Assembly: GCA_012797935.1 (NCBI GenBank)
Contig: JAAZOC010000052.1
Location: 1-41,034, forward strand
Reading direction: 5' to 3'
DNA from: Candidatus Microgenomates bacterium
GTDB lineage: Bacteria > Patescibacteriota > Dojkabacteria > SC72
Length of the DNA: 41,034 bases
Shown here: piece by piece, positions 7,470 through 31,645 of the stretch
Layout: every line of letters begins with the position of its first letter
How positions within the stretch are numbered: the first letter of the stretch is position 1
Program-made: the position numbers and the translations under genes
The notes under the pieces: generated by a model
Databases searched by the model: none
The model's input: only the letters and a program-made list of their open reading frames with translations
Told to the model about the DNA's origin: nothing

Positions 7470-7796
7470 ATGGTTAAGAAAGACAGAAAACAAAGAAGAA
7501 TAAGAAGAAAATTACACATTAGAAAGAATGTTAGTGGAACTAGTACAAAACCAAGAATATTTGTTTTTAAAAGTAATAGGTTCTTCTATGCAGGTATTGC
7601 AGATGATGAGTCTAACAAAGTTGTTAAATCATTAATGGCAAAAAAGAACAGTAATGATATAATCACTATGGCAGCAGACTTTGCAAAAGAAGCTTCTAAA
7701 TTCGAATCATTGGTCTTTGATAGAAGTGGATACAGATACCATGGATTGATTAAAATATTTGCTGACGAATTAAGAAATAAAGGAGTTAAAATTTAG
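7470..7796 (+). CDS. rplR: 50S ribosomal protein L18
   Basis: Contains RKLHIRKNVSGTSTKPRIFVFKSN...FDRSGYRYHG. Confidence 0.93.
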   Translation: MVKKDRKQRRIRRKLHIRKNVSGTSTKPRIFVFKSNRFFYAGIADDESNKVVKSLMAKKNSNDIITMAADFAKEASKFESLVFDRSGYRYHGLIKIFADELRNKGVKI

Positions 7797-16170: not shown

Positions 16171-16478
16171 GGGTGCAAGTATTACAGGATGATTGCATTT
16201 ACTTTTAGTAAATGAGGAAAGTCCGGACTCCATGTCAGTCTAGAACATATCTAGATAGGTGCCAACGAGAGTTGGAAGGGAGTGATCTTTTGGATAAAAG
16301 GGCAACAGAAAGTTATACCGCCTAATTTATTAGGTAAGGGTGAAATGGTAGTGTAAGAGACTACCGGGTATTACAGTAATGCAATATCGCGTGGTAACCC
16401 CCTCCTGGAGCAAGGTTAAACCGCATAGATAGATAATCATCGTTATACAGAATCCGGCTTATTGTGTACTTGCACAAC
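16171..16478 (+). ncRNA. rnpB: RNase P RNA, bacterial type A, compact (about 308 nt)
   Basis: The 5' P4 strand GAGGAAAGTCCGGAC is near 16213 and the 3' P4 strand ACAGAATCCGGCTTA is at 16447-16461. P1 pairs gtgcaagt (16173-16180) with acttgcac (16468-16475). No ORF is present. The ends are approximate. Confidence 0.85.
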
Positions 16479-16504: not shown

Positions 16505-16513
16505 TGTTATAAT
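16505..16513 (+). promoter_or_regulatory. Extended -10 (TGtTATAAT) upstream of the E1-like/acyltransferase-like/kinase operon
   Basis: TG at 16505-16506 and TATAAT at 16508-16513, 30 nt upstream of the ATG at 16544. The -35 is weak. Confidence 0.35.
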
Positions 16514-16543
16514 TTAACACAATAATCTACTATCATCTTAAAT

Positions 16544-17704
16544 ATGGAAAATGAAATAGAGAATAGTGAGAGTCTACAAGAGGATTTACAAAATCCAATT
16601 TCTTCTTTGTGCGAATTAATGGAAGCTAATGAATCAGCAAGGTATCTTAACTCCTTTGGGCAACTTGAGGGTATTAAAACTGTTGATCATTTGCTTAAAG
16701 AAATTAGAACAAAAGTAAAGAATACAGAACCAAAACAAGTACAAGAAGAGAAAGTATCAGTCCTTTCTTCTGAAGAATTCTATAAAGTATTTACAGCCTC
16801 TGCATCTAAATTTGTAGAGCAAGGAGTACAAGAGAAATTTAGAAGATCAAATGTATTAGTTGGCGGAGCTGGAAGTATTGGTAACCCAATAGCTATGATG
16901 GCTGTAAGATCAGGAGCTGAAAATATAACAATAGCAGACCCAGATGTTGTTGAAGATTCAAATCTTGCAAGACAAGAATATCTAAAAGATCAAGTTGGCA
17001 AGAACAAAGCGGAAATGACAGTTGAGAATATGTCGAAAATAAATCCATATGCAAAAGATAAGCTAAAAAGTATTCCAGAGGGTATAACAAAAGAAAATGT
17101 AGAAGAGTTAGTAAAAAATTCTGACATAATTATTGATGGTATTGATATCAGAGCCGCAGATATGTCTTGGGAGTTACACAAATATGCATGCCAGTATAAG
17201 AAACCTGTTATTGTTGGTTATGATATGGCAGGCACAGCAATGGTAGCTGTTTACAGGTATGATAAAGATGTAGAAAAAGTATTAAATGGTGAAATATCTG
17301 AAGAAACTATAGAAGAATTTAAAAAAGTAAAATCCGCATACAAAGAGGGAAGAATAAAAGAATCAGAATTTTTAAACTATGTATATGATACATTAACTGG
17401 GCCAATTAATCCTTTGAAAGTACCTGTTGAACAGTTCAAAGAACTAATATCTAGAGATAGTAATGATACCCGTACTTACCAAGATGGTACTACTTCCCGT
17501 TTGTTAAGTGCTTTAACGATTGAAACTATGAGAAAAATTTATGCCGGAGAAGAAGTTAAAAAGATTATTACTTTAGATTTACCATCATCTGTTAGAAGAT
17601 TTAATCCAACAATTTTTACAAAAGTAGGACTAATGTTAAAAGCTCTTAATGTTGTTAACAAAAGAGGTGCGGAAGTTAAAGATATGACAAATAAATTGAA
17701 ATAA
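16544..17704 (+). CDS. ThiF/MoeB/HesA-family (E1-like) adenylyltransferase, atypical
   Basis: Contains VLVGGAGSIGNPIAMMAVRSGAENITIADPDVVEDSNLARQ...DIIIDGIDIRAAD. This covers the Rossmann GxGxxG loop, the SNLxRQ motif and the acidic Mg site. It has an extra N-terminal region and no CxxC pairs. Confidence 0.8.
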   Translation: MENEIENSESLQEDLQNPISSLCELMEANESARYLNSFGQLEGIKTVDHLLKEIRTKVKNTEPKQVQEEKVSVLSSEEFYKVFTASASKFVEQGVQEKFRRSNVLVGGAGSIGNPIAMMAVRSGAENITIADPDVVEDSNLARQEYLKDQVGKNKAEMTVENMSKINPYAKDKLKSIPEGITKENVEELVKNSDIIIDGIDIRAADMSWELHKYACQYKKPVIVGYDMAGTAMVAVYRYDKDVEKVLNGEISEETIEEFKKVKSAYKEGRIKESEFLNYVYDTLTGPINPLKVPVEQFKELISRDSNDTRTYQDGTTSRLLSALTIETMRKIYAGEEVKKIITLDLPSSVRRFNPTIFTKVGLMLKALNVVNKRGAEVKDMTNKLK

Positions 17705-17711
17705 AAAAATA

Positions 17712-18509
17712 ATGGACGAAAACAAAGAGGTCTCAATACAAGAGTTAGAACCGGAGAAGATTTTTTTCAATGTTGCGGAGACTGAGGAAGATAAACTAGG
17801 AAGATTGAAGGTAGTAACTGAAAGATATGGAAAAGAAGGGTATTTAGAAGATATAAAAGTACATGAATCTTCTTCTAAGATATCGGATCTACTAGAAAAG
17901 GGTGGTATCTCAATACTTGAGAAAGAATTACAACCTGGTGAATTTCAAGAATTTTTAGAACATGGAATTCTTGTTCATGATGAATCAGGACAAGATTATT
18001 ATATTGATAAATATACTTGGAATTCTGTGCCTTTTGTAGCAAAACAAGGTGGTGAATATGTTGGTTCTGCAAGAATGATAATAAAAAATGGATTTAATTT
18101 ACCAACACTTTCAGATCCGACTATTCATATTGATGAGAATTGGAAAGAAAAAGTGAAAGATTGTAAGATAGAATTCTCTCAGTTTGCTGTAAAAAAAGGA
18201 TCCCCTGCAGGAGTTTCAATTGGTTTGCTTCGTGCAGCACATATATATAGTAGAGATGTATTAAAAATATCAGATTGGGTTGCAACTATTGATGATAGAG
18301 TTGTAAGACTCTTGAACAGTAATTTCTTTCATTTTGAACTTCCACAAATAGGTCCAGGTGTTTTGTATTTAGGATCCCTTTCTGTACCTGTCCTTGTAAA
18401 CTTTGAGAAAGCTTTAGAAAATGCTGAAAAACACGAAAACAGTAAAAACATGGCACAATTCATAAGGGGAAATGATGTCGAAGGATTTGATTGGTATTCT
18501 GGTAAATAA
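17712..18509 (+). CDS. GNAT-fold N-acyltransferase-like protein (LuxI / FeeM N-acyl amino acid synthase-like)
   Basis: Motif pattern: DKYTWNSVPFVA..GEYVGSARMII..LPT; IEFSQFAVKK; GLLRAAHIYS..WVATIDDRVVRLLNS.FFHF..IGPGVLYLGS.SVPVL. The family assignment comes from remembered sequence patterns, not a search. Confidence 0.5.
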   Translation: MDENKEVSIQELEPEKIFFNVAETEEDKLGRLKVVTERYGKEGYLEDIKVHESSSKISDLLEKGGISILEKELQPGEFQEFLEHGILVHDESGQDYYIDKYTWNSVPFVAKQGGEYVGSARMIIKNGFNLPTLSDPTIHIDENWKEKVKDCKIEFSQFAVKKGSPAGVSIGLLRAAHIYSRDVLKISDWVATIDDRVVRLLNSNFFHFELPQIGPGVLYLGSLSVPVLVNFEKALENAEKHENSKNMAQFIRGNDVEGFDWYSGK

Positions 18510-18525
18510 GAGTATATAAATAAAA

Positions 18526-20790
18526 ATGGAAACTGTCTTACTCTCTATAATCTGTATAGCTCTAGTTGGTTTGGGCTTACTTACTTTCTTTGCTAATACA
18601 AAAGGAAAAACAAATAGATATTTCCTTCTTCTTACACTCTTTGCTTCTCTCTGGATATTATCAAACTATTTTTCCAATATAAGAACTGATACTAATGAAG
18701 TTCTGTTCTACAATAAAATGATTTTCTTTAATACATCTTTCTTGGTCTATTTCCTTTATCTTTTTTCAACTGTTTACCCCAATCAAAAAAATGAAATATC
18801 CAAAACTGCTAAAATATTAACATTTATATTCACAATATTAACGGCCGCTATCTCATTGTCAGGATATTTAGTAAAAGATATATCTATCCAGCAATCTCAT
18901 TCGAATATTACTTTTGGAATTGGAATCATAATATATCTTTTACAATTTATACTATTCGCATTCCTCTTTATTTGGAATATAGTAAAAAGCTATAAAGTGT
19001 CTGAAGGAGTAGAAAAGGTAAAAGTTCAATATCTATTCCTAGGAATATCGTTTTCGCTTATTGGTACATGTATAACTAATTTAATATTACCAATCTTCTT
19101 TTCAAATTTTGAACTCTCAAACATTGGCCCATTATTCCTTCTATTCTTCATCATATTTACAACAGTTTCGATAGTTCGTTTTAGATTGTTTGGTATAAGA
19201 TTCCTTTTTGCACAAATAGTAAACACAATAGTTGGAACGGCAATCCCATATATAAGTTTCTTCCTAATATATTTCATATTCACGAAGTTTTTGGGAGGGG
19301 TTTTTTCTACTCTATCTTTGATAATTGGAATATTCTTTGCTCTTCTTTTTTCATATATTTATTCTCTAATTAAGGATAAATGTCGAAAGTTACTCCTTGG
19401 GAAATTTGCATACAGAGGTTTTGATCCAAACGAATTGATCACAAGGTATGTTAAAGATATTAGTACTGAATTGGATATGGATAAACTTTCAAATAATGTT
19501 TTAACTTTGATTAAAGATATTTTCAGCATCAGTAATATAGGTATTATCGTTTTCAAAGGAGAGGGGGAGAATATTGTATTTAAGAAATTGTGGGGGTATG
19601 AAGAAGACCAGTTTTTGTTTAATAGCTTAATTTCAGTTACAAAGTATTGGGATGAAGTAAAAGAGAATGTGCCAATTTTGAAAGAGGAGATATCTGTATC
19701 TGATGATGTAAATCCAAAACTAAAAGAAATTCACGATAATATGAAAAGGTTTGATCTTGAAATGATACTTCCTCTAAACAAGAGAGTAAGTTTGAATGGA
19801 TTAATCTTTTTTGGAAAAAGAGAAGATAAGAAAAATTTTACTGCTGAAGAAATTCAATTCTTAGAGAATATTGTTATGAATACTTCTGTCGCTATAGGTA
19901 GGGCAATTCTTTATGAAGAAGTTAAGGAATTTAATCTTACTCTTCAGGCAAAGGTTGAAGAACAAACAGAAGAGCTTCAAATAAAAGTAAAGCAGTTGCA
20001 AGAATCGAGAGAAAAAGAAAGAGATATGATTGACATTATGGGGCATGAATTGAGGACCCCTGCAACAGTTGTAAAACTTAATGCTGAACTTTTGGAAGGT
20101 TTTACTGAAAATATTATGAATAATAAAGAAAAGTTTAAAACATATGTATCTAGGATTCGAAATGCTGTTGAAAATGAAATTAAGCTCATTAATACTCTTT
20201 TGAGTAGTGCAAAATTAGAAGGTAATAAAATTGAATTGAAACTGGAGGAAATAGATATTGTTAAAGAAATAGAAATGGCAATTGTTGGTCATGAATTTAA
20301 GGCTAAAGAAAAAGGCTTAGGACTTGTAAATTCTGTTTTGAAAGATACTCCATCTATATTTGCAGATCATGCTCGATTAATAGAAGTGCTTAATAATCTC
20401 ATAGATAATGCAATAAAATATACAGAAAGAGGAACAGTTACAATTGATTCTTCTTTTGATGAAAAAATGGTTTATATAAGTGTGATTGATTCTGGTCAAG
20501 GAATTAGTGAAGAGGATATTGCAAACCTTGGAAAGAAATTCTTTAGAGTTGGGAATTATTTAAATAAAGGAGAGGGTAAACCTGATGTTGTAAGACCTGG
20601 TGGTACAGGATTAGGCCTCTATGTTACATTCGGCCTAGTAGAAAAAATGGGTGGCAAAATAACTGTAGAAAGTAAAATAGGGGTAGGAAGTACATTCACA
20701 TTTTCTCTGCCAAGATATGTTGGACAAGATAGCGGTAAAGTAAAATCTAAAACAAATAATATGTTTGAAAGGCTTGGATTACAAAGGTAA
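18526..20790 (+). CDS. Sensor histidine kinase: N-terminal polytopic (7TM-type) domain, GAF, HisKA, HATPase_c
   Basis: About 7-8 hydrophobic helices span residues 1-290. The GAF-like end reads LPLNKRVSLNGLIFFGKRE...AIGRAILYEE. The H-box is MGHELRTPAT (His codon 20044-20046). The N-box is NLIDNAIKYT, followed by DSGQGIS and GGTGLGLY. Confidence 0.9.
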   Translation: METVLLSIICIALVGLGLLTFFANTKGKTNRYFLLLTLFASLWILSNYFSNIRTDTNEVLFYNKMIFFNTSFLVYFLYLFSTVYPNQKNEISKTAKILTFIFTILTAAISLSGYLVKDISIQQSHSNITFGIGIIIYLLQFILFAFLFIWNIVKSYKVSEGVEKVKVQYLFLGISFSLIGTCITNLILPIFFSNFELSNIGPLFLLFFIIFTTVSIVRFRLFGIRFLFAQIVNTIVGTAIPYISFFLIYFIFTKFLGGVFSTLSLIIGIFFALLFSYIYSLIKDKCRKLLLGKFAYRGFDPNELITRYVKDISTELDMDKLSNNVLTLIKDIFSISNIGIIVFKGEGENIVFKKLWGYEEDQFLFNSLISVTKYWDEVKENVPILKEEISVSDDVNPKLKEIHDNMKRFDLEMILPLNKRVSLNGLIFFGKREDKKNFTAEEIQFLENIVMNTSVAIGRAILYEEVKEFNLTLQAKVEEQTEELQIKVKQLQESREKERDMIDIMGHELRTPATVVKLNAELLEGFTENIMNNKEKFKTYVSRIRNAVENEIKLINTLLSSAKLEGNKIELKLEEIDIVKEIEMAIVGHEFKAKEKGLGLVNSVLKDTPSIFADHARLIEVLNNLIDNAIKYTERGTVTIDSSFDEKMVYISVIDSGQGISEEDIANLGKKFFRVGNYLNKGEGKPDVVRPGGTGLGLYVTFGLVEKMGGKITVESKIGVGSTFTFSLPRYVGQDSGKVKSKTNNMFERLGLQR

Positions 20791-21762
20791 ATTTCTACCA
20801 ATACCATTTAGAAATTCTTTTTCACTCATTTTGTTTCTTCCTTCTATTTGGAGTTCATTTACTCTAAAACAAATATGTGGATCTTTTGTTGCAAATAGTA
20901 GCATGCCATTTTTCTGAAAGATAACCCCAGCATCTTTCTCTGTATGAACTTCTTCCAATGCGCATTTAAATATCTTCATACTTTTACTAGCTAGGCTTTT
21001 TATTCCAAGTTCATCGTCAAGTTTACACCAAGCTATTGGCCATGGTAGAAATGCTCTTACCATTCTCTCCGCATATTTTGGATCATGCTTGCTCAATTGT
21101 ATTTCAGCATTCTCTTTCGAAATATCTCTTTGCCAGCAGTAGGTAGCATCCTCATGTCTTTGAACTGTTGGAGCTATCTCGCCATTTATCCATCTGAGTA
21201 ACACAGGGATGAGTATTTCAGAGCTTTTCTCTACTAGTCTTTTTCTTAATGAAAAATTGGTATCATCTTCTTTAATATCTTCTCTGTACATCTCTAAAAC
21301 ATCACCTTCATCCAAACCCTCACTCATAATCATTATTGATATACCTGTTTCTTTCTCTCCGTCTAAAATTGCTTTTTGTATTGGAACAGCACCTCTGTAC
21401 TTTGGTAAAAGAGAAAAATGAATATTAATACACTTAAACTTTGGATACTCTAGAAAAGACTTTGGAACTATCTCTCCAAAAGCCTTGCAAACAACCAATT
21501 CTGGCTCGTACTTCTCTAAAACTTTTTCGTAATTATCTTTTTTACTTTCTGTATGGAAAACATGGATATCGTTCTTCAAAGCATATTCCTTAACCTCTGA
21601 ATGAGTGATAATTTGTTTTCTTCCAACAGGCTTGTCAGGAGCAGTTACTGCACAAACAACATCAAAATATTCACTCTCGTGCAAAACCTTAAGTGATTCT
21701 ACTGACTCCCACCCTGTACCTAAAAAAACTGTTCTAATTGGTTCTTTCTTTAAATCTCTCAT
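20779..21762 (-). CDS. fmt: Methionyl-tRNA formyltransferase
   Basis: Contains VFLGTG...HFSLLPKYRGAVPIQKAILDGEKETGISIM. The track start at 21786 is a TTG, so I prefer the ATG at 21762 (MRDLKKEPIRTVFLGT). Confidence 0.9.
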   Translation of the reverse strand: MRDLKKEPIRTVFLGTGWESVESLKVLHESEYFDVVCAVTAPDKPVGRKQIITHSEVKEYALKNDIHVFHTESKKDNYEKVLEKYEPELVVCKAFGEIVPKSFLEYPKFKCINIHFSLLPKYRGAVPIQKAILDGEKETGISIMIMSEGLDEGDVLEMYREDIKEDDTNFSLRKRLVEKSSEILIPVLLRWINGEIAPTVQRHEDATYCWQRDISKENAEIQLSKHDPKYAERMVRAFLPWPIAWCKLDDELGIKSLASKSMKIFKCALEEVHTEKDAGVIFQKNGMLLFATKDPHICFRVNELQIEGRNKMSEKEFLNGIGRNLPL

Positions 21763-21812
21763 ACCTAATTCTACTGTAATATACAAACAATTACTATATA
21801 ATACTCGTTGAT

Positions 21813-23872: not shown

Positions 23873-23884
23873 GTCTGTCCCTAG
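23861..23884. repeat. Left inverted repeat of the Y1-transposase cassette (tandem 12/13-mers ggtctgtcctag + ggtctgtccctag sharing one g)
   Basis: Its reverse complement ctagggacagacctaggacagacc matches 24348-24371 at 20 of 24 positions. The outer 12 nt match perfectly. Confidence 0.85.
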
Positions 23885-24312
23885 TACTTACTCCATGGAT
23901 ATTCCGAAGGCTTTTTGACTAAGCCTTCTACAACGGGATTCTGTTTGATATATTCTTTCGCTCTTAATAGATCTTTTTTCCAATACAGCAGATTCGCATT
24001 ATATCTGCCTTGAAATATATGTCCAACCCTTTGGTATTTACGGTTTACTTGCATTGCGAAGCTTGTTACCACTTTCTGCATATATTTCGAAATCTCGTTT
24101 GGTTGTTTTCCTGTTTTAAGAATTAGGTGAAAATGATTATCCATAATACAAAATGCAATTAGCCGAATATCTGTTTCTTTTATATATTCATATAGTAAAT
24201 GTTTGAAAATATTCTTTTCTGATGAATTCTTTAAAATCGCTTCCTTGTTGTTGCATCTGTTGAATATATGGTAATGAGAATTTTTAATAAAATTTCTACT
24301 TTTTCTTGACAT
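23881..24312 (-). CDS. IS200-like / REP-associated tyrosine (Y1, HUH) transposase
   Basis: HUH motif DNHFHLIL. The C-terminal segment GHIFQGRYNA carries the catalytic-type Tyr. It begins HYHIFNRCN. The stop codon lies within the left IR. Confidence 0.8.
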   Translation of the reverse strand: MSRKSRNFIKNSHYHIFNRCNNKEAILKNSSEKNIFKHLLYEYIKETDIRLIAFCIMDNHFHLILKTGKQPNEISKYMQKVVTSFAMQVNRKYQRVGHIFQGRYNANLLYWKKDLLRAKEYIKQNPVVEGLVKKPSEYPWSKY

Positions 24313-26883: not shown

Positions 26884-28299
26884 ATGATAAAAAACTGCTT
26901 AATCCCTAACAAAAGAAATAAATTCAAACCATATTTGCTAAGAAAGATTGCAATTCTTTGTTATTCATTGGTCTTGGTTTTTGTTAATAGCTTTGGTGGA
27001 TTTTTAGGCATAGATCAAGCAAAGGCAAGTTCAATAAGTTCTGCAAATATAATTGCATTAACTAACCAAGAAAGAAGTTCTCAAGGATTGAATACTCTCA
27101 ATAATAATTCACAACTTGCTGCAGCTGCTTTAGCGAAAGCTAACGATATGTTTGAGAAACAGTATTGGGATCATTTTGGTCCAAATGGAGAAACTCCATG
27201 GCAATTCATTAGGGCTGCTGGATATAACTATGTATATGCCGGTGAGAACCTCGCTAAGGGCTTCCAGACAGCAGAAGGAGTGCATGAGGCTTGGATGGCA
27301 AGCCCAACACATAAAGCGAATCTACTGAGTCCAAATTACAAAGATATAGGTGTTGCTGTTGTTGAAGGTGTACTCTTAGGTAAACAGACTATTCTTGTTG
27401 TACAAATGTTTGGTAATTTAACAAATGATGTATACAAAGCAACGGCACCTGTGAAGGAAGAAGAAAGTGTTAAACAATCGACAACAGAAAGTTCTTCTGG
27501 AAAAGTTGTTGTTAACAAAGAACAAGGTGAAATAAAGAGCATTAGAATAACATCTCCTAAAAAAGATTCTGTAGTATCGGATCCATCATCTGTGGTAAAA
27601 GGTGAGGTTAAGAATGTTGAAGGTGAATATTCTGTAAATATTATTGAAGGAGAAAATGTAGTTGGAAGTACGACTTCAAATGGAGATACTTGGGAAATGA
27701 AAAAAGAATCAGACTGGAGTGAAGGTAAACATAAAATACAGGCAAGCATAAAAGGTACATCAGTTATTTCTGATAAAGTATCTTTCACAGTAGATTCAAA
27801 AGCACCAACTGCTACAAAGGAAAGTATACAAGTTGCGAAGGGAGATTCGGGTTATACAGTTTCTTTCACTGTTGATGGTGATTGGGAGAAAATGAGTGTA
27901 ATTGCTGGATCAGAAATTATAGATGTTGAATATGAATTAAATGAAGAAACAAAAGTTATTACAGTTAATCTTAGTGATGAACAAGTAAAGGGTGCTGTAT
28001 CGTTGGTTCTTGCTGATTCATATGGTAATACTTCACAACTGGATATTTCTGAATATTTTGCAGAGAAGGATGATACAAAACAAAATACCTCTATATTCCC
28101 AATCTTAAGTCTTAACCTTTGTGACAAGATTAGTATAGGAATAGTATCTTTTGTATTTATATTACTTTGTATAGAAATATTTGTTTACTGGAGAAAAGGT
28201 AAACTCAAAGATGCAATAGGTGATTTATTTACTATTGGTCTATGGTGGTTTGTACTTACAATTGCTATCTTTAATGGATTTAATGGATCTATCACCTAA
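26884..28299 (+). CDS. Membrane-anchored CAP/SCP (YkwD-like) domain protein with Ig-like repeats
   Basis: N-terminal TM or signal segment. The CAP region reads LTNQERSSQGL..L..N.QLAAAALAKANDM....YWDHFGPNGE...GENLAKGF......HEAWMASPTHKANLL...YKDIGVAV. It is followed by beta-rich repeats and two C-terminal TM helices. Confidence 0.75.
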   Translation: MIKNCLIPNKRNKFKPYLLRKIAILCYSLVLVFVNSFGGFLGIDQAKASSISSANIIALTNQERSSQGLNTLNNNSQLAAAALAKANDMFEKQYWDHFGPNGETPWQFIRAAGYNYVYAGENLAKGFQTAEGVHEAWMASPTHKANLLSPNYKDIGVAVVEGVLLGKQTILVVQMFGNLTNDVYKATAPVKEEESVKQSTTESSSGKVVVNKEQGEIKSIRITSPKKDSVVSDPSSVVKGEVKNVEGEYSVNIIEGENVVGSTTSNGDTWEMKKESDWSEGKHKIQASIKGTSVISDKVSFTVDSKAPTATKESIQVAKGDSGYTVSFTVDGDWEKMSVIAGSEIIDVEYELNEETKVITVNLSDEQVKGAVSLVLADSYGNTSQLDISEYFAEKDDTKQNTSIFPILSLNLCDKISIGIVSFVFILLCIEIFVYWRKGKLKDAIGDLFTIGLWWFVLTIAIFNGFNGSIT

Positions 28300-29098: not shown

Positions 29099-29800
29099 AT
29101 GGAAAAAAGAATAGTAATGAAGATAGGGGGTTCTGTATTGTATGACAAATTTTTAAATATCAATTATGAACTATTGGACAAAGTGAGGGATTGGTACAAG
29201 GAATCTAAAGAAGAGTATGAGAAAATTGTATTGATAATCGGTGGTGGTGCTCTCTCAAGAGATATGCAGGGTAGAATTAAAGAAGATATGGATCAGGAAT
29301 ATCTTCATAATATTGGTATGACCGTTACTCAAACAAATGCAGCTCTTTTACAAGGTTTTCTTAATGATACTGATGTTTTTGTCCCAAATACATTGGGAGA
29401 AGCTTTTGAATATTTAGTAGAAGATGGGAAAAAAGTATTACTAAGTGGCGGTCTTAAGTCAGGTTGGAGTACAGATATGGACGCTGCTGTATTTGCTGAC
29501 ATAATTTCTGTTGACAGAATCTTTAAACTATCCGATATAAATTATGTCTACGACAAAGATCCAAAGGAATTTGAAGATGCGAAACCATTAAAAGATATTT
29601 CTTGGGGAGATTATTTTTCAATGTTTAATATTACAGATGGAGATGTACATAAAGCAAATGGAAAAATACCAATAGATGTTGGATGTGCACAGTTCTCTAA
29701 AAACAAAGATCTTTCGTTTGTAATTACTGGAGGAGAAAGTCTCTATACAAAGGAAAGTATAAAAGATATCTTAACTGATGGAACTTTTATACATCCCTAG
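29099..29800 (+). CDS. Amino-acid-kinase family protein, probable UMP kinase (short form)
   Basis: Contains VMKIGGSVL...LIIGGGALSRD...GWSTDMDAAVFADIISVDRIFKLSDINYVYDKDP. The substrate assignment is inferred. Confidence 0.6.
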   Translation: MEKRIVMKIGGSVLYDKFLNINYELLDKVRDWYKESKEEYEKIVLIIGGGALSRDMQGRIKEDMDQEYLHNIGMTVTQTNAALLQGFLNDTDVFVPNTLGEAFEYLVEDGKKVLLSGGLKSGWSTDMDAAVFADIISVDRIFKLSDINYVYDKDPKEFEDAKPLKDISWGDYFSMFNITDGDVHKANGKIPIDVGCAQFSKNKDLSFVITGGESLYTKESIKDILTDGTFIHP

Positions 29801-30258
29801 CTAATCTTGTCTAAGATATATGTAGTATCTCCTTTTGGAGTTGAAATAGTTACTTTATCTCCGACTTTTTTGTTAATTACTGCTTGTCCAATAGGGGAAA
29901 GAGATGAGATTTTACCATCTAAAGGATTTGCTTCTTCTTGCCCAACAATTTCATATGTTAGACTTTTCTCTCCCTTTAAGTGTACTGTATCTCCAATGCC
30001 AACTTTGCTCTTGTTTCTATCTTTAATAATAACTGCATTTCTAATCTTTTCTTTTAATTCCAGAATTCTTTCTTCGTTAATATTCTGTTCCTCAATTGCC
30101 ATTGTATATCCATCATTCTCTCTTAAATCGCCCTGATTTCTCATTTCATTCAAGGTTGATGCTATCTTGGATCTCTGATTCTCTTCTCTATCCTTTAACT
30201 CTTCTTTTAGCTTTTCTAACCCTGAGGCAGTGGTTTGGTATTTATTGTTTTCGTCCAT
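29797..30258 (-). CDS. greA: Transcription elongation factor GreA
   Basis: Contains GDLRENDGYTMAIEEQ. The C-terminal domain reads VGIGDTVHL...YEIVG..EANPLDGKISSLSPIGQAV. The track start at 30264 is a TTG, so I prefer the ATG at 30258. Confidence 0.9.
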   Translation of the reverse strand: MDENNKYQTTASGLEKLKEELKDREENQRSKIASTLNEMRNQGDLRENDGYTMAIEEQNINEERILELKEKIRNAVIIKDRNKSKVGIGDTVHLKGEKSLTYEIVGQEEANPLDGKISSLSPIGQAVINKKVGDKVTISTPKGDTTYILDKIS

Positions 30259-30363
30259 TTCCAAACCTTAGATTAACTTAAATGCGAGAGATAATATATT
30301 CTGTATAACAGAATGTCAAATATATTAGAACCTGTCGTAACTGTTCTAAATAGCTGTGTTATA

Positions 30364-30386: not shown

Positions 30387-30461
30387 GCCGCTATCGTCTA
30401 ACGGTTAGGACACAGGATTCTCAATCCTGCAATCGGGGTCCGATTCCCCGTAGCGGTACCA
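30387..30461 (+). tRNA. tRNA-Glu (anticodon CTC), CCA encoded
   Basis: Hand-folded cloverleaf. Acceptor gccgcta/tagcggt, D arm gtct-aacggtta-ggac, anticodon arm cagga-ttCTCaa-tcctg. The variable loop is 4 nt and the T arm is cgggg-tccgatt-ccccg. The discriminator is A, followed by CCA. Confidence 0.85.
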
Positions 30462-31180: not shown

Positions 31181-31645
31181 ATGAAAGAAAAAATTGTATT
31201 GACTAAAGGTAAAATTGAAGAATTGGAAAAGGAGTTGAAACTCTTGGAAGGAACAAAGAGAAAAGAGCTTGGAAAGACATTGGAGCAGGCTAGATTGAGT
31301 GATGTAAGTGAAGATACTGATGCTGTCATTGCTGTTATGGGTGATATTGAGAAGGTAGATTTGAGAATAGCAGAAATTAAAGATATTCTTGAAAATGCTG
31401 AGGTTCTAAGTAAAAAAGGTTGCTCAGTAAATAAAGTACAGGTTGGTTCTGAAGTAAAAGTAAAAGTTGGAAACAAGACATTATCTTTTAATATCGTTTC
31501 TGAGGTTGAATCAGATCCTTCTGCAAACAAGATATCCGATAATTCTCCTCTAGGGAAAGCTTTGTTAAAAGCTAAAAAGGGTGATTCTGTAAAACTTCAA
31601 ATTGATGGAAGGGATGTTGAATACAAAGTAATGGATATTTGTTAA
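31181..31645 (+). CDS. GreA/GreB-family paralog (divergent N-terminal coiled coil)
   Basis: The C-terminal domain VQVGSEVKV...FNIVSEVESDPSANKISDNSPLGKALL parallels greA. The N-terminal tip reads SDVSEDTDAVIAV rather than GDLxEN.xY. Confidence 0.75.
   Translation: MKEKIVLTKGKIEELEKELKLLEGTKRKELGKTLEQARLSDVSEDTDAVIAVMGDIEKVDLRIAEIKDILENAEVLSKKGCSVNKVQVGSEVKVKVGNKTLSFNIVSEVESDPSANKISDNSPLGKALLKAKKGDSVKLQIDGRDVEYKVMDIC

Follow-up and report, generated by a model that had tools for sequence, protein, structure and literature searches.

A conserved three-gene cassette in Patescibacteria that joins a ThiF-like enzyme and an N-acyl amino acid synthase-like protein to a polytopic histidine kinase: a candidate module for making and sensing a small molecule

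In a stretch of 41,034 nucleotides from a Candidatus Microgenomates bacterium (Patescibacteriota, Dojkabacteria; GenBank assembly GCA_012797935.1, contig JAAZOC010000052.1, positions 1 to 41,034 of the forward strand; hereafter the window) three closely packed genes encode, in order, a ThiF/E1-like adenylating enzyme (gene 1), a FeeM/LuxI-fold acyltransferase that resembles N-acyl amino acid synthases (NAS; gene 2), and a polytopic sensor histidine kinase (gene 3; Table 1). Genes 1 and 2 are separated by 7 nt and genes 2 and 3 by 16 nt, while the convergent fmt gene overlaps the stop end of gene 3 by 12 nt. A first-pass annotation, made from the letters of the window and its open reading frames (ORFs), had proposed the trio as one unit for the synthesis and perception of a signal. 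Its gene coordinates, spacers and overlap, and its placing of the trio between RNase P RNA and housekeeping genes, are all exact, and its domain assignments for the three proteins were borne out by Pfam and by fold matches, with the GAF domain of gene 3 scoring below threshold.

Relatives of the trio were gathered with a narrow alignment of gene 2, which found only 3 GTDB genomes, and metagenomes were scanned in addition. A ThiF gene lies directly upstream of the gene 2 relative in 40 out of 40 fetched loci, and within the Patescibacteria the kinase gene follows this pair, with the gene order kept, in six or more unrelated flanking contexts (Table 1). One of these lies between tsf and frr, a slot usually occupied by pyrH; in the window a pyrH-like amino-acid kinase gene is found elsewhere. 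Across the trio loci, identity to the window proteins ranges over 54-62% (gene 1), 43-57% (gene 2) and 32-53% (gene 3), and kinase identity to gene 3 drops to as little as 25-34% across the entire length, the transmembrane (TM) region included. Moreover, ThiF and NAS have been joined into a single chain in two independent fusions (P0134, 543 aa, and P0151, 863 aa), and behind each comes a HisKA_7TM kinase that can be aligned with gene 3 along the full length; the fusion-type loci have no further conserved accessory genes in common. Recurring as it does in many independent contexts, the three-gene arrangement is far beyond chance, and because its order is kept across unrelated contexts and its members undergo fusion, the three genes are one functional unit, as the first-pass annotation had supposed; they are also neighbors in related genomes, a point which that annotation had proposed to check.

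Several loci carry candidate partners of the module. Single-domain response regulators adjoin it in L015 (2 nt before the ThiF gene), L016 and L041, all of them divergent loci, two of the NAS type and one of a sister type described below. Furthermore, a conserved small ribbon-helix-helix (RHH) ORF of the RelB/CopG-like kind immediately precedes the module in three lineages, and this protein could be a transcriptional regulator or an output; no such ORF precedes the trio in the window. The L016 locus also encodes, 3 kb upstream of its ThiF-NAS fusion, a 472-aa protein with a HisKA_7TM domain in which no kinase core was detected. In L004 the trio adjoins, and is convergent with, four ATP-grasp genes and a 7TM_transglut gene, a cluster that is probably an unrelated peptide-modification system.

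Gene 1 belongs to the ThiF/E1-like superfamily by its Pfam score (ThiF, PF00899, E = 1.3e-31), by its motifs (GxGxxG, D, SNLxRQ, K and DxxD) and by its fold. The ATP/Mg motif residues G108, S111, G113, D132, N140, R143, K155, D198 and D201 are invariant in 40 homologues, as are D227, R238, Y239, D240, G286, P294, Q313 and T317 of the family-specific C-terminal region. An AlphaFold model (pLDDT 85.7) has as its best fold match in the Protein Data Bank (PDB) AclA of Tenacibaculum discolor (9egb), followed by ThiF, MoeB, PaaA and MccB. AclA (PDB 9egb/9egc/9egd, released in 2025) is also the top PDB match by sequence (profile E = 3.5e-23; the fold match has a Foldseek E of 7e-14 with 23% identity and a TM-score on target of 0.80), yet at 265 aa it is without the C-terminal domain of gene 1. 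The E1-like Rossmann core and all of the ATP/Mg motifs are shared with the sulfur-carrier adenylyltransferases ThiF and MoeB, which are the best sequence-family matches. In contrast to these enzymes, gene 1 has no ubiquitin-like (Ubl) partner at its locus, carries an extra C-terminal domain of 150 residues, and falls below every NCBIfam cut-off, the best being ThiF PRK08644 with 101 bits against 159; neither an invariant Cys nor a CxxC zinc site occurs among the 40 aligned homologues. Its N-terminal extension (about 58 residues with low pLDDT and two predicted helices) is found only in the window, L019 and L020, at 83% identity. It was considered as a fused copy of the upstream RHH ORF and rejected, the two being unrelated. 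Gene 1 also matches the ThiF segment of NCBIfam PRK14852/PRK14851, uncharacterized multidomain 'hypothetical proteins' that are much larger than gene 1 and do not come from Patescibacteria. Their C-terminal part is matched by the nitroreductase of a sister module (L042, below) and PRK14852 by one distant gene 2 relative, so that the combination of domains already exists in databases as a fusion.

By sequence gene 2 only just reaches a known family, scoring 29.7 bits against Pfam FeeM where the gathering cut-off is 27; no NCBIfam model matched it, and a profile of its family found no match among PDB sequences even at E <= 10. Fold comparison, on the other hand, did work. The AlphaFold model (pLDDT 81.8) has FeeM (2g0b) as its top Foldseek match (E = 5e-7, TM-score on target 0.70), and the next matches are the acyl-homoserine lactone (AHL) synthases MesI, BjaI, LasI and RpaI (6wns, 5w8a and 1ro5 among the PDB ids), which agrees with the LuxI/FeeM fold that the first-pass annotation had put up for checking. 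A profile search of 1.84 billion representatives returned 171 relatives. Of 83 distant ones, 76 are PEP-CTERM/exosortase-associated acyltransferases of TIGR03694, and the remainder include matches to TraI-type AHL synthases and OlsB; hhalign aligns the gene 2 family with the profile of these distant relatives, mostly TIGR03694, at 99.9% probability. With FeeM and the TIGR03694 NAS proteins gene 2 shares the fold, the E-x-S-x-[FL]-A strand motif and the D/R motifs, and it differs from them in an N-terminal helical insertion of about 42 residues (about 47-92, seen as a gap in the hhalign alignment), in its constant pairing with a ThiF-like gene and in lacking an exosortase context. We conclude from sequence and model that gene 2 is an NAS-like protein of the FeeM/LuxI fold, for which the family predicts N-acylation activity.

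Gene 3 exceeds the Pfam thresholds for HisKA_7TM (PF16927; E = 3.4e-11, 43.8 bits against 28.6), HisKA (5.3e-9) and HATPase_c (2.9e-25), and it retains H507 together with intact N, G1 and G2 boxes. A hydropathy scan places about nine hydrophobic segments within residues 4-274. The cytoplasmic domain that follows is termed GAF-like here because it scores below the gathering cut-off of GAF_2 (E = 1.2e-4, 22.7 bits against 28.6); it has a weak PDB match to a phosphodiesterase GAF domain, and GAF scores are stronger in the orthologous kinases of L016 and L042. The kinases of every module variant can be aligned with gene 3 from one end to the other, and Pfam detects no Response_reg domain in gene 3. 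The TM region shows a weak colinear match to the NCBIfam model LuxN_Vibrio (residues 37-278 against LuxN 54-304; E = 6e-6 with a query of 480 aa and 6e-4 with one of 330 aa), and such matches occur at E < 1 in 7 of 10 kinases (6e-6 to 0.27), the best being that of L016 (E = 8.6e-16, LuxN residues 36-462). These similarities, far below any curated threshold, suggest that the TM domain may be remotely homologous to the AHL-sensing domain of LuxN. A further weak match is to LIC10906_fam, a Leptospira membrane-protein family. A second Leptospira-named family, LBL_2463_fam, came up independently among the matches of distant gene 2 relatives, and a related pairing of a 7TM protein with an NAS may exist in Leptospira.

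The resemblance to LuxM-LuxN and AinS-AinR of Vibrio that the first-pass annotation had drawn is a reasonable one, and the TM region of gene 3 adds its weak colinear LuxN matches. In both settings a synthase gene stands beside a kinase of about nine TM helices, and the AHL ligands of the Vibrio systems resemble the class of ligand predicted here, a ring derived from an N-acyl amino acid. The systems differ in that gene 2 has the LuxI/FeeM fold whereas the Vibrio synthases belong to the LuxM/AinS family, in the addition of a ThiF-like enzyme, and in the kinase itself: LuxN is a hybrid kinase that feeds LuxU-LuxO, whereas gene 3 contains a GAF-like domain and lacks a receiver at its C-terminus.

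Outside the gene 1 family, the ThiF proteins most closely related to it are P0088 of locus L042 and P0089 of locus L041, a relation that rests on independent comparisons, alignment A4 containing both proteins so that an hmmsearch with it is circular. P0089 matches the cyclase portion of the Rv1355c (TrzS) family with 260.6 bits; P0088, whose full-length identity to P0089 is 61%, is linked to that model through P0089, the one of the two that was scanned. In both loci the slot taken elsewhere by the NAS gene is filled by a PaaK-like adenylate-forming ligase (497-499 aa; no Pfam match; TIGR02155 at E = 2e-18; PDB 4r1l at E = 5.6e-10), and the same type of kinase follows, so that different amide-forming enzymes occupy the same position beside ThiF and kinase. 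L042 additionally encodes a divergent nitroreductase of the Acg/FDO type (248.7 bits against an NCBIfam cut-off of 199), and L041 adds a single-domain receiver to its ThiF, PaaK-like ligase and HisKA_7TM-GAF kinase. L041 is moreover syntenic with the fusion locus L016, their receivers being 61% and their Na/H exchangers 39% identical. These sister modules look like an oxazolone-type pathway in which a ligase stands in for the NAS.

Oxazolone pathways have been described. The FeeM-like enzymes OxzA, TyzA and TrzA transfer an acyl group from acyl-CoA to the nitrogen of Tyr, Phe or Trp, their ThiF-like partners OxzB, TyzB and TrzS carry out an ATP-dependent cyclization of the N-acyl amino acid to an oxazolone, and an oxidase of the nitroreductase type desaturates it (PMC10404671; PMC12596934). 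In TrzS the cyclization comes ahead of the oxidation, and no oxidase activity is needed for the saturated ring to form (PMC12856293). A 2025 review counts one known case of a ThiF-like enzyme with a small-molecule substrate (PMC12596934). In OxzA/OxzB of Pseudoalteromonas rubra, TyzA/TyzB/TyzC and TrzA/TrzS of Mycobacterium tuberculosis an NAS gene stands beside a gene for a ThiF-like ATP-dependent enzyme whose substrate is a small molecule, and the same adjacency of NAS and ThiF-like gene or domain is what we find in all 40 loci and in both fusion architectures. The first-pass annotation knew of no described system with this trio. As to its enzymatic pair this did not hold, since NAS plus ThiF-like enzyme is a known kind, the core of OxzAB, TyzABC and TrzAS (PMC10404671, PMC12856293, PMC12596934). 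There are nevertheless clear differences. Gene 2 carries its insertion and gene 1 its own C-terminal domain; a flavin-dependent nitroreductase/FDO oxidase was seen neither in the window nor in those NAS-type trio loci that have precomputed Pfam annotation, and only in the sister module L042; the trio is tied to a membrane histidine kinase, a link of which we found no description for Oxz, Tyz or Trz; and its hosts are Patescibacteria of the anaerobe type, whereas those of Oxz, Tyz and Trz are Proteobacteria or Actinobacteria. What is new here, then, is an oxidase-free form with a ThiF outside the characterized clade, a coupling to one HisKA_7TM-GAF kinase subfamily that is conserved through four module architectures, the presence of receivers that stand alone, and the occurrence of the whole as a mobile cassette in Patescibacteria. 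Limited full-text literature searches returned no description of this gene combination or of a synthase-receptor system for an autoinducer encoded by the candidate phyla radiation (CPR).

The remaining features of the locus are collected in Table 1. RNase P RNA (rnpB) is preceded by the genes of ribosomal proteins L13 and S9 and by a DUF4349 gene, while fmt is followed by queA and tgt. The window has a G+C content of about 33%, and in this AT-rich DNA generic scans for sigma-70 promoters and for terminators performed at chance level. The extended -10 (TGtTATAAT) to which the first-pass annotation had pointed is indeed present upstream of gene 1, and the copy TGTTATAAT is kept in the related locus L019, whereas the spacer 5' of the element differs there; the motif itself is no rarer than chance predicts, with 5 copies in the window against 3.9 expected. 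Since the count does not exceed chance, TGTTATAAT at 16505 is a plausible promoter of the trio by inference only. Five TGNTATAAT motifs lie at 7655, 11025, 16505, 32941 (minus strand) and 33008, four of them intergenic and immediately 5' of genes, which suggests that the organism uses extended -10 promoters. Further along the window there is an IS200-like Y1 transposase gene right after tgt, about 3 kb 3' of the trio, two GreA/GreB-family paralogues that flank a tRNA gene and trmD, and a gene whose product has a CAP (cysteine-rich secretory protein) domain and may be secreted or act at the surface.

Table 1. Features of the trio, its flanks and its relatives. Locations without a locus name are positions in the window.
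Feature	Location	Strand	Details
Gene 1	16544-17704	+	ThiF/E1-like adenylating enzyme, 386 aa
Gene 1, N-terminal extension	16544-16717		residues 1-58
Gene 1, adenylation core			residues ~90-238
Gene 1, C-terminal domain			family-specific; residues ~239-386
Gene 2	17712-18509	+	FeeM/LuxI-fold NAS-like acyltransferase, 265 aa
Gene 3	18526-20790	+	polytopic sensor histidine kinase, 754 aa, without receiver domain
Gene 3, sensor region	18526-19350	+	~9 TM segments, residues 1-275; HisKA_7TM at residues 8-224
Gene 3, GAF-like cytoplasmic domain	19471-19896	+	residues 316-457
Gene 3, kinase core	20020-20715	+	HisKA residues 499-566 (H507 in HELRTP); HATPase_c 614-730 with N, G1 and G2 boxes
Bacterial RNase P RNA (rnpB)	16176-16476	+	directly 5' of the trio
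Extended -10-like element TGTTATAAT	16505-16513	+	start codon of gene 1 lies 31 nt downstream; read from sequence
fmt	20779-21786	-	convergent with gene 3
IS200-like Y1 transposase gene	23881-24312	-	
CAP domain protein	26884-28299		471 aa
pyrH-like amino-acid kinase gene	29099-29800		
GreA/GreB-family paralogue	29797-30264	-	
tRNA gene	30387-30458		
GreA/GreB-family paralogue	31181-31645	+	
Trio context DUF4349-rnpB/fmt	window, L019, L020		
Trio context tsf/frr	11 Dojkabacteria-type loci		including L009, L010, L012, L025-L030, L039
Trio context, mobile-element-like region			with ParB, ArdC, Fic, SNase, RHH, integrase
Trio context MATCAP/RimK			
Trio context APH-RHH			
Trio context, restriction-modification island			
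Sister module	L042:171-5977		
Sister module	L041:6001-11308		
ThiF-NAS pair without kinase	L011:4435-7712		
Small RHH ORF	L001:6779-7003		
Small RHH ORF	L008:6804-6977		
Small RHH ORF	L015:1512-1727		
HisKA_7TM protein	L016:3767-5185		
Trio with ATP-grasp cluster	L004:9235-14931		

How might such a unit work? The comparisons show the domain identities, the functional coupling of the three genes and their homology to the NAS and ThiF families, whereas the substrates, the product, the link from ligand to receptor and the output are what we infer. The reading that we prefer, to which we would give an even chance, is that the three genes form a single cassette for making and sensing a small amphipathic molecule. 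From its family and the precedents, gene 2 would N-acylate an amino acid from an acyl-thioester donor. Gene 1, by the example of OxzB, TyzB and TrzS and with its motifs intact, would then adenylate the free carboxylate of this N-acyl amino acid, and an internal nucleophile would close a ring by displacing AMP. Attack by the amide oxygen would give a 5(4H)-oxazolone, which would be saturated because no oxidase is present; attack by a side-chain OH, SH or NH2 would give a lactone, thiolactone or lactam resembling an acyl-homoserine lactone. The product would enter the membrane and be read by the HisKA_7TM sensor of gene 3, a step that only the conserved linkage of the genes suggests, and the kinase would signal to a stand-alone receiver, located beside the module in some genomes and presumably elsewhere in this one.

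A number of points weigh against this reading. As gauged by proxy, through the NCBIfam model of the Rv1355c family, gene 1 with 55.9 bits (against 260.6 for the L041 ThiF, and against the 101 bits that gene 1 itself scores on an ordinary ThiF model) lies by sequence outside the TyzB/OxzB/TrzS clade; for this reason, and on account of its different C-terminal domain, its role as a cyclase is transferred by analogy. The acyl donor, the amino acid and the type of ring are likewise predictions from the families. The lability of a saturated 5(4H)-oxazolone to hydrolysis sits awkwardly with a diffusible signal, and as Patescibacteria are generally regarded as lacking fatty-acid synthesis, the supply of acyl-thioester is uncertain. 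Turning to the sensor, adjacency of the kinase demonstrates functional coupling and is not proof that the product is its ligand; 3 of the 10 kinases gave no LuxN match and all of the matches are below the curated threshold (18-57 bits against 1550); and the 41-kb window contains no response regulator or DNA-binding output. Finally, a subclade (L011, L031-L038 and L040) has the ThiF and NAS pair without any kinase, repeatedly beside a gene or two with weak likeness to methyltransferases (Methyltransf_20 and Methyltransf_23, both sub-threshold) and in some cases in transposase-rich surroundings.

This subclade also bears on an alternative that we consider rather unlikely, in which genes 1 and 2 make a lipid derived from an N-acyl amino acid for some other purpose (structural, surfactant, antibiotic or host-directed) and the kinase only regulates the cassette on a different cue, for example stress, the state of the membrane or a signal from the host. 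Retention of the enzyme pair there implies that the chemistry is useful without the sensor; NAS products moreover include antibiotics and membrane lipids, and the Tyz and Trz oxazolones are mostly cell-associated and without assigned function (PMC10404671; PMC12856293). Against a purely regulatory kinase, however, its subfamily stays with the ThiF modules at 25-34% identity and despite exchange of the amide-forming enzyme (NAS, fusion or PaaK-like ligase), a constancy typical of cognate producer-sensor pairs, and an intramembrane polytopic sensor with weak likeness to LuxN suits an amphipathic ligand. The proposal of the first-pass annotation was of another kind: the ThiF-like enzyme would make an acyl-adenylate from a free (fatty) acid, and the FeeM-like enzyme would use this in place of acyl-ACP or acyl-CoA. 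Doubtful acyl-ACP supply in reduced genomes, the argument of that annotation, would favor such an order, and the fusion proteins fit channelling in either direction. We nonetheless judge it improbable. FeeM, LuxI, OxzA, TyzA and TrzA all take thioester donors, activation of a fatty acid is not known for any ThiF-like enzyme, and the sole small-molecule case concerns the carboxylate of an N-acyl amino acid (PMC12596934). In L041 and L042, furthermore, ThiF is kept beside a dedicated adenylate-forming ligase of the PaaK type, where it would be redundant unless its role were other than acyl activation. Because the characterized precedents acylate from acyl-CoA first and cyclize with the ThiF-like enzyme afterwards, and because ThiF persists next to the ligase, the order of reactions proposed in that annotation is probably reversed.

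Most of the characterized ThiF-like enzymes of secondary metabolism act on peptides (PMC12596934), PaaA and MccB are among the fold matches of gene 1, and its closest structure, AclA 9egb, was solved 'in complex with substrate'. One might therefore ask if a ribosomal peptide or protein is adenylated by the ThiF-like enzyme, at its C-terminus or on a side chain (compare MccB, PaaA, GrcB and IndF), with the GNAT-fold protein acylating it and the kinase sensing the peptide. This we hold to be quite improbable, gene 2 being of the amino-acid N-acyltransferase lineage. No conserved small ORF occurs within or beside the trio, where the spacers leave only 7 and 16 nt and the one recurrent small ORF is the RHH-type DNA-binding protein; no RRE domain was seen at the module loci, the roughly 40 residues before the adenylation core in most family members leaving no room for one; and no gene of the ThiS/MoaD type, or any other gene for thiamin or molybdenum cofactor, was present in any of the module loci that the survey covered. 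Together with the lack of a conserved Cys these absences argue against a protein or peptide substrate. The last alternative is an ordinary ThiF/MoeB enzyme that activates a sulfur carrier for thiamin or molybdopterin and neighbors the other genes by chance; the first-pass annotation had named a sulfur-carrier partner encoded elsewhere as a finding that would refute its own proposal. In favor of this alternative are the best NCBIfam matches, which are ThiF models, and homologues annotated in places as 'molybdopterin/thiamine biosynthesis adenylyltransferase'. With a score well under the ThiF cut-off, no Ubl gene at the loci, no invariant Cys or CxxC, and linkage to gene 2 in every fetched locus as well as by fusion, this role is exceedingly improbable, and gene 1 as a sulfur-carrier adenylyltransferase is effectively excluded.

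Should the cassette indeed make and sense a cyclized N-acyl amino acid, a broader proposal follows, which we put forward tentatively and regard as possible though doubtful: that Patescibacteria (CPR) possess a self-contained form of signaling, independent of LuxI/LuxR and of peptides, in which an N-acyl amino acid cyclized by a ThiF-like enzyme is sensed by a LuxN-like 7TM-GAF kinase, and that by extension the Oxz, Tyz and Trz lipids are themselves signals with cognate membrane kinases. The same kinase subfamily also accompanies a module composed of a TrzS-like ThiF, an FDO and a PaaK-like ligase. The conserved link of oxazolone-type chemistry to one kinase subfamily makes it a testable hypothesis that acyl-oxazolones, including those of M. 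tuberculosis, are signals, and as the cassette is compact, mobile, conserved and easily synthesized it is directly testable in E. coli. Patescibacteria are ultrasmall and mostly epibiotic, and their regulation and host recognition are largely obscure. If the proposal is true, it would add an oxidase-free member to the ThiF-like enzymes that act on small molecules, and it would constitute a new kind of chemical signaling in a group without a known system of this sort.

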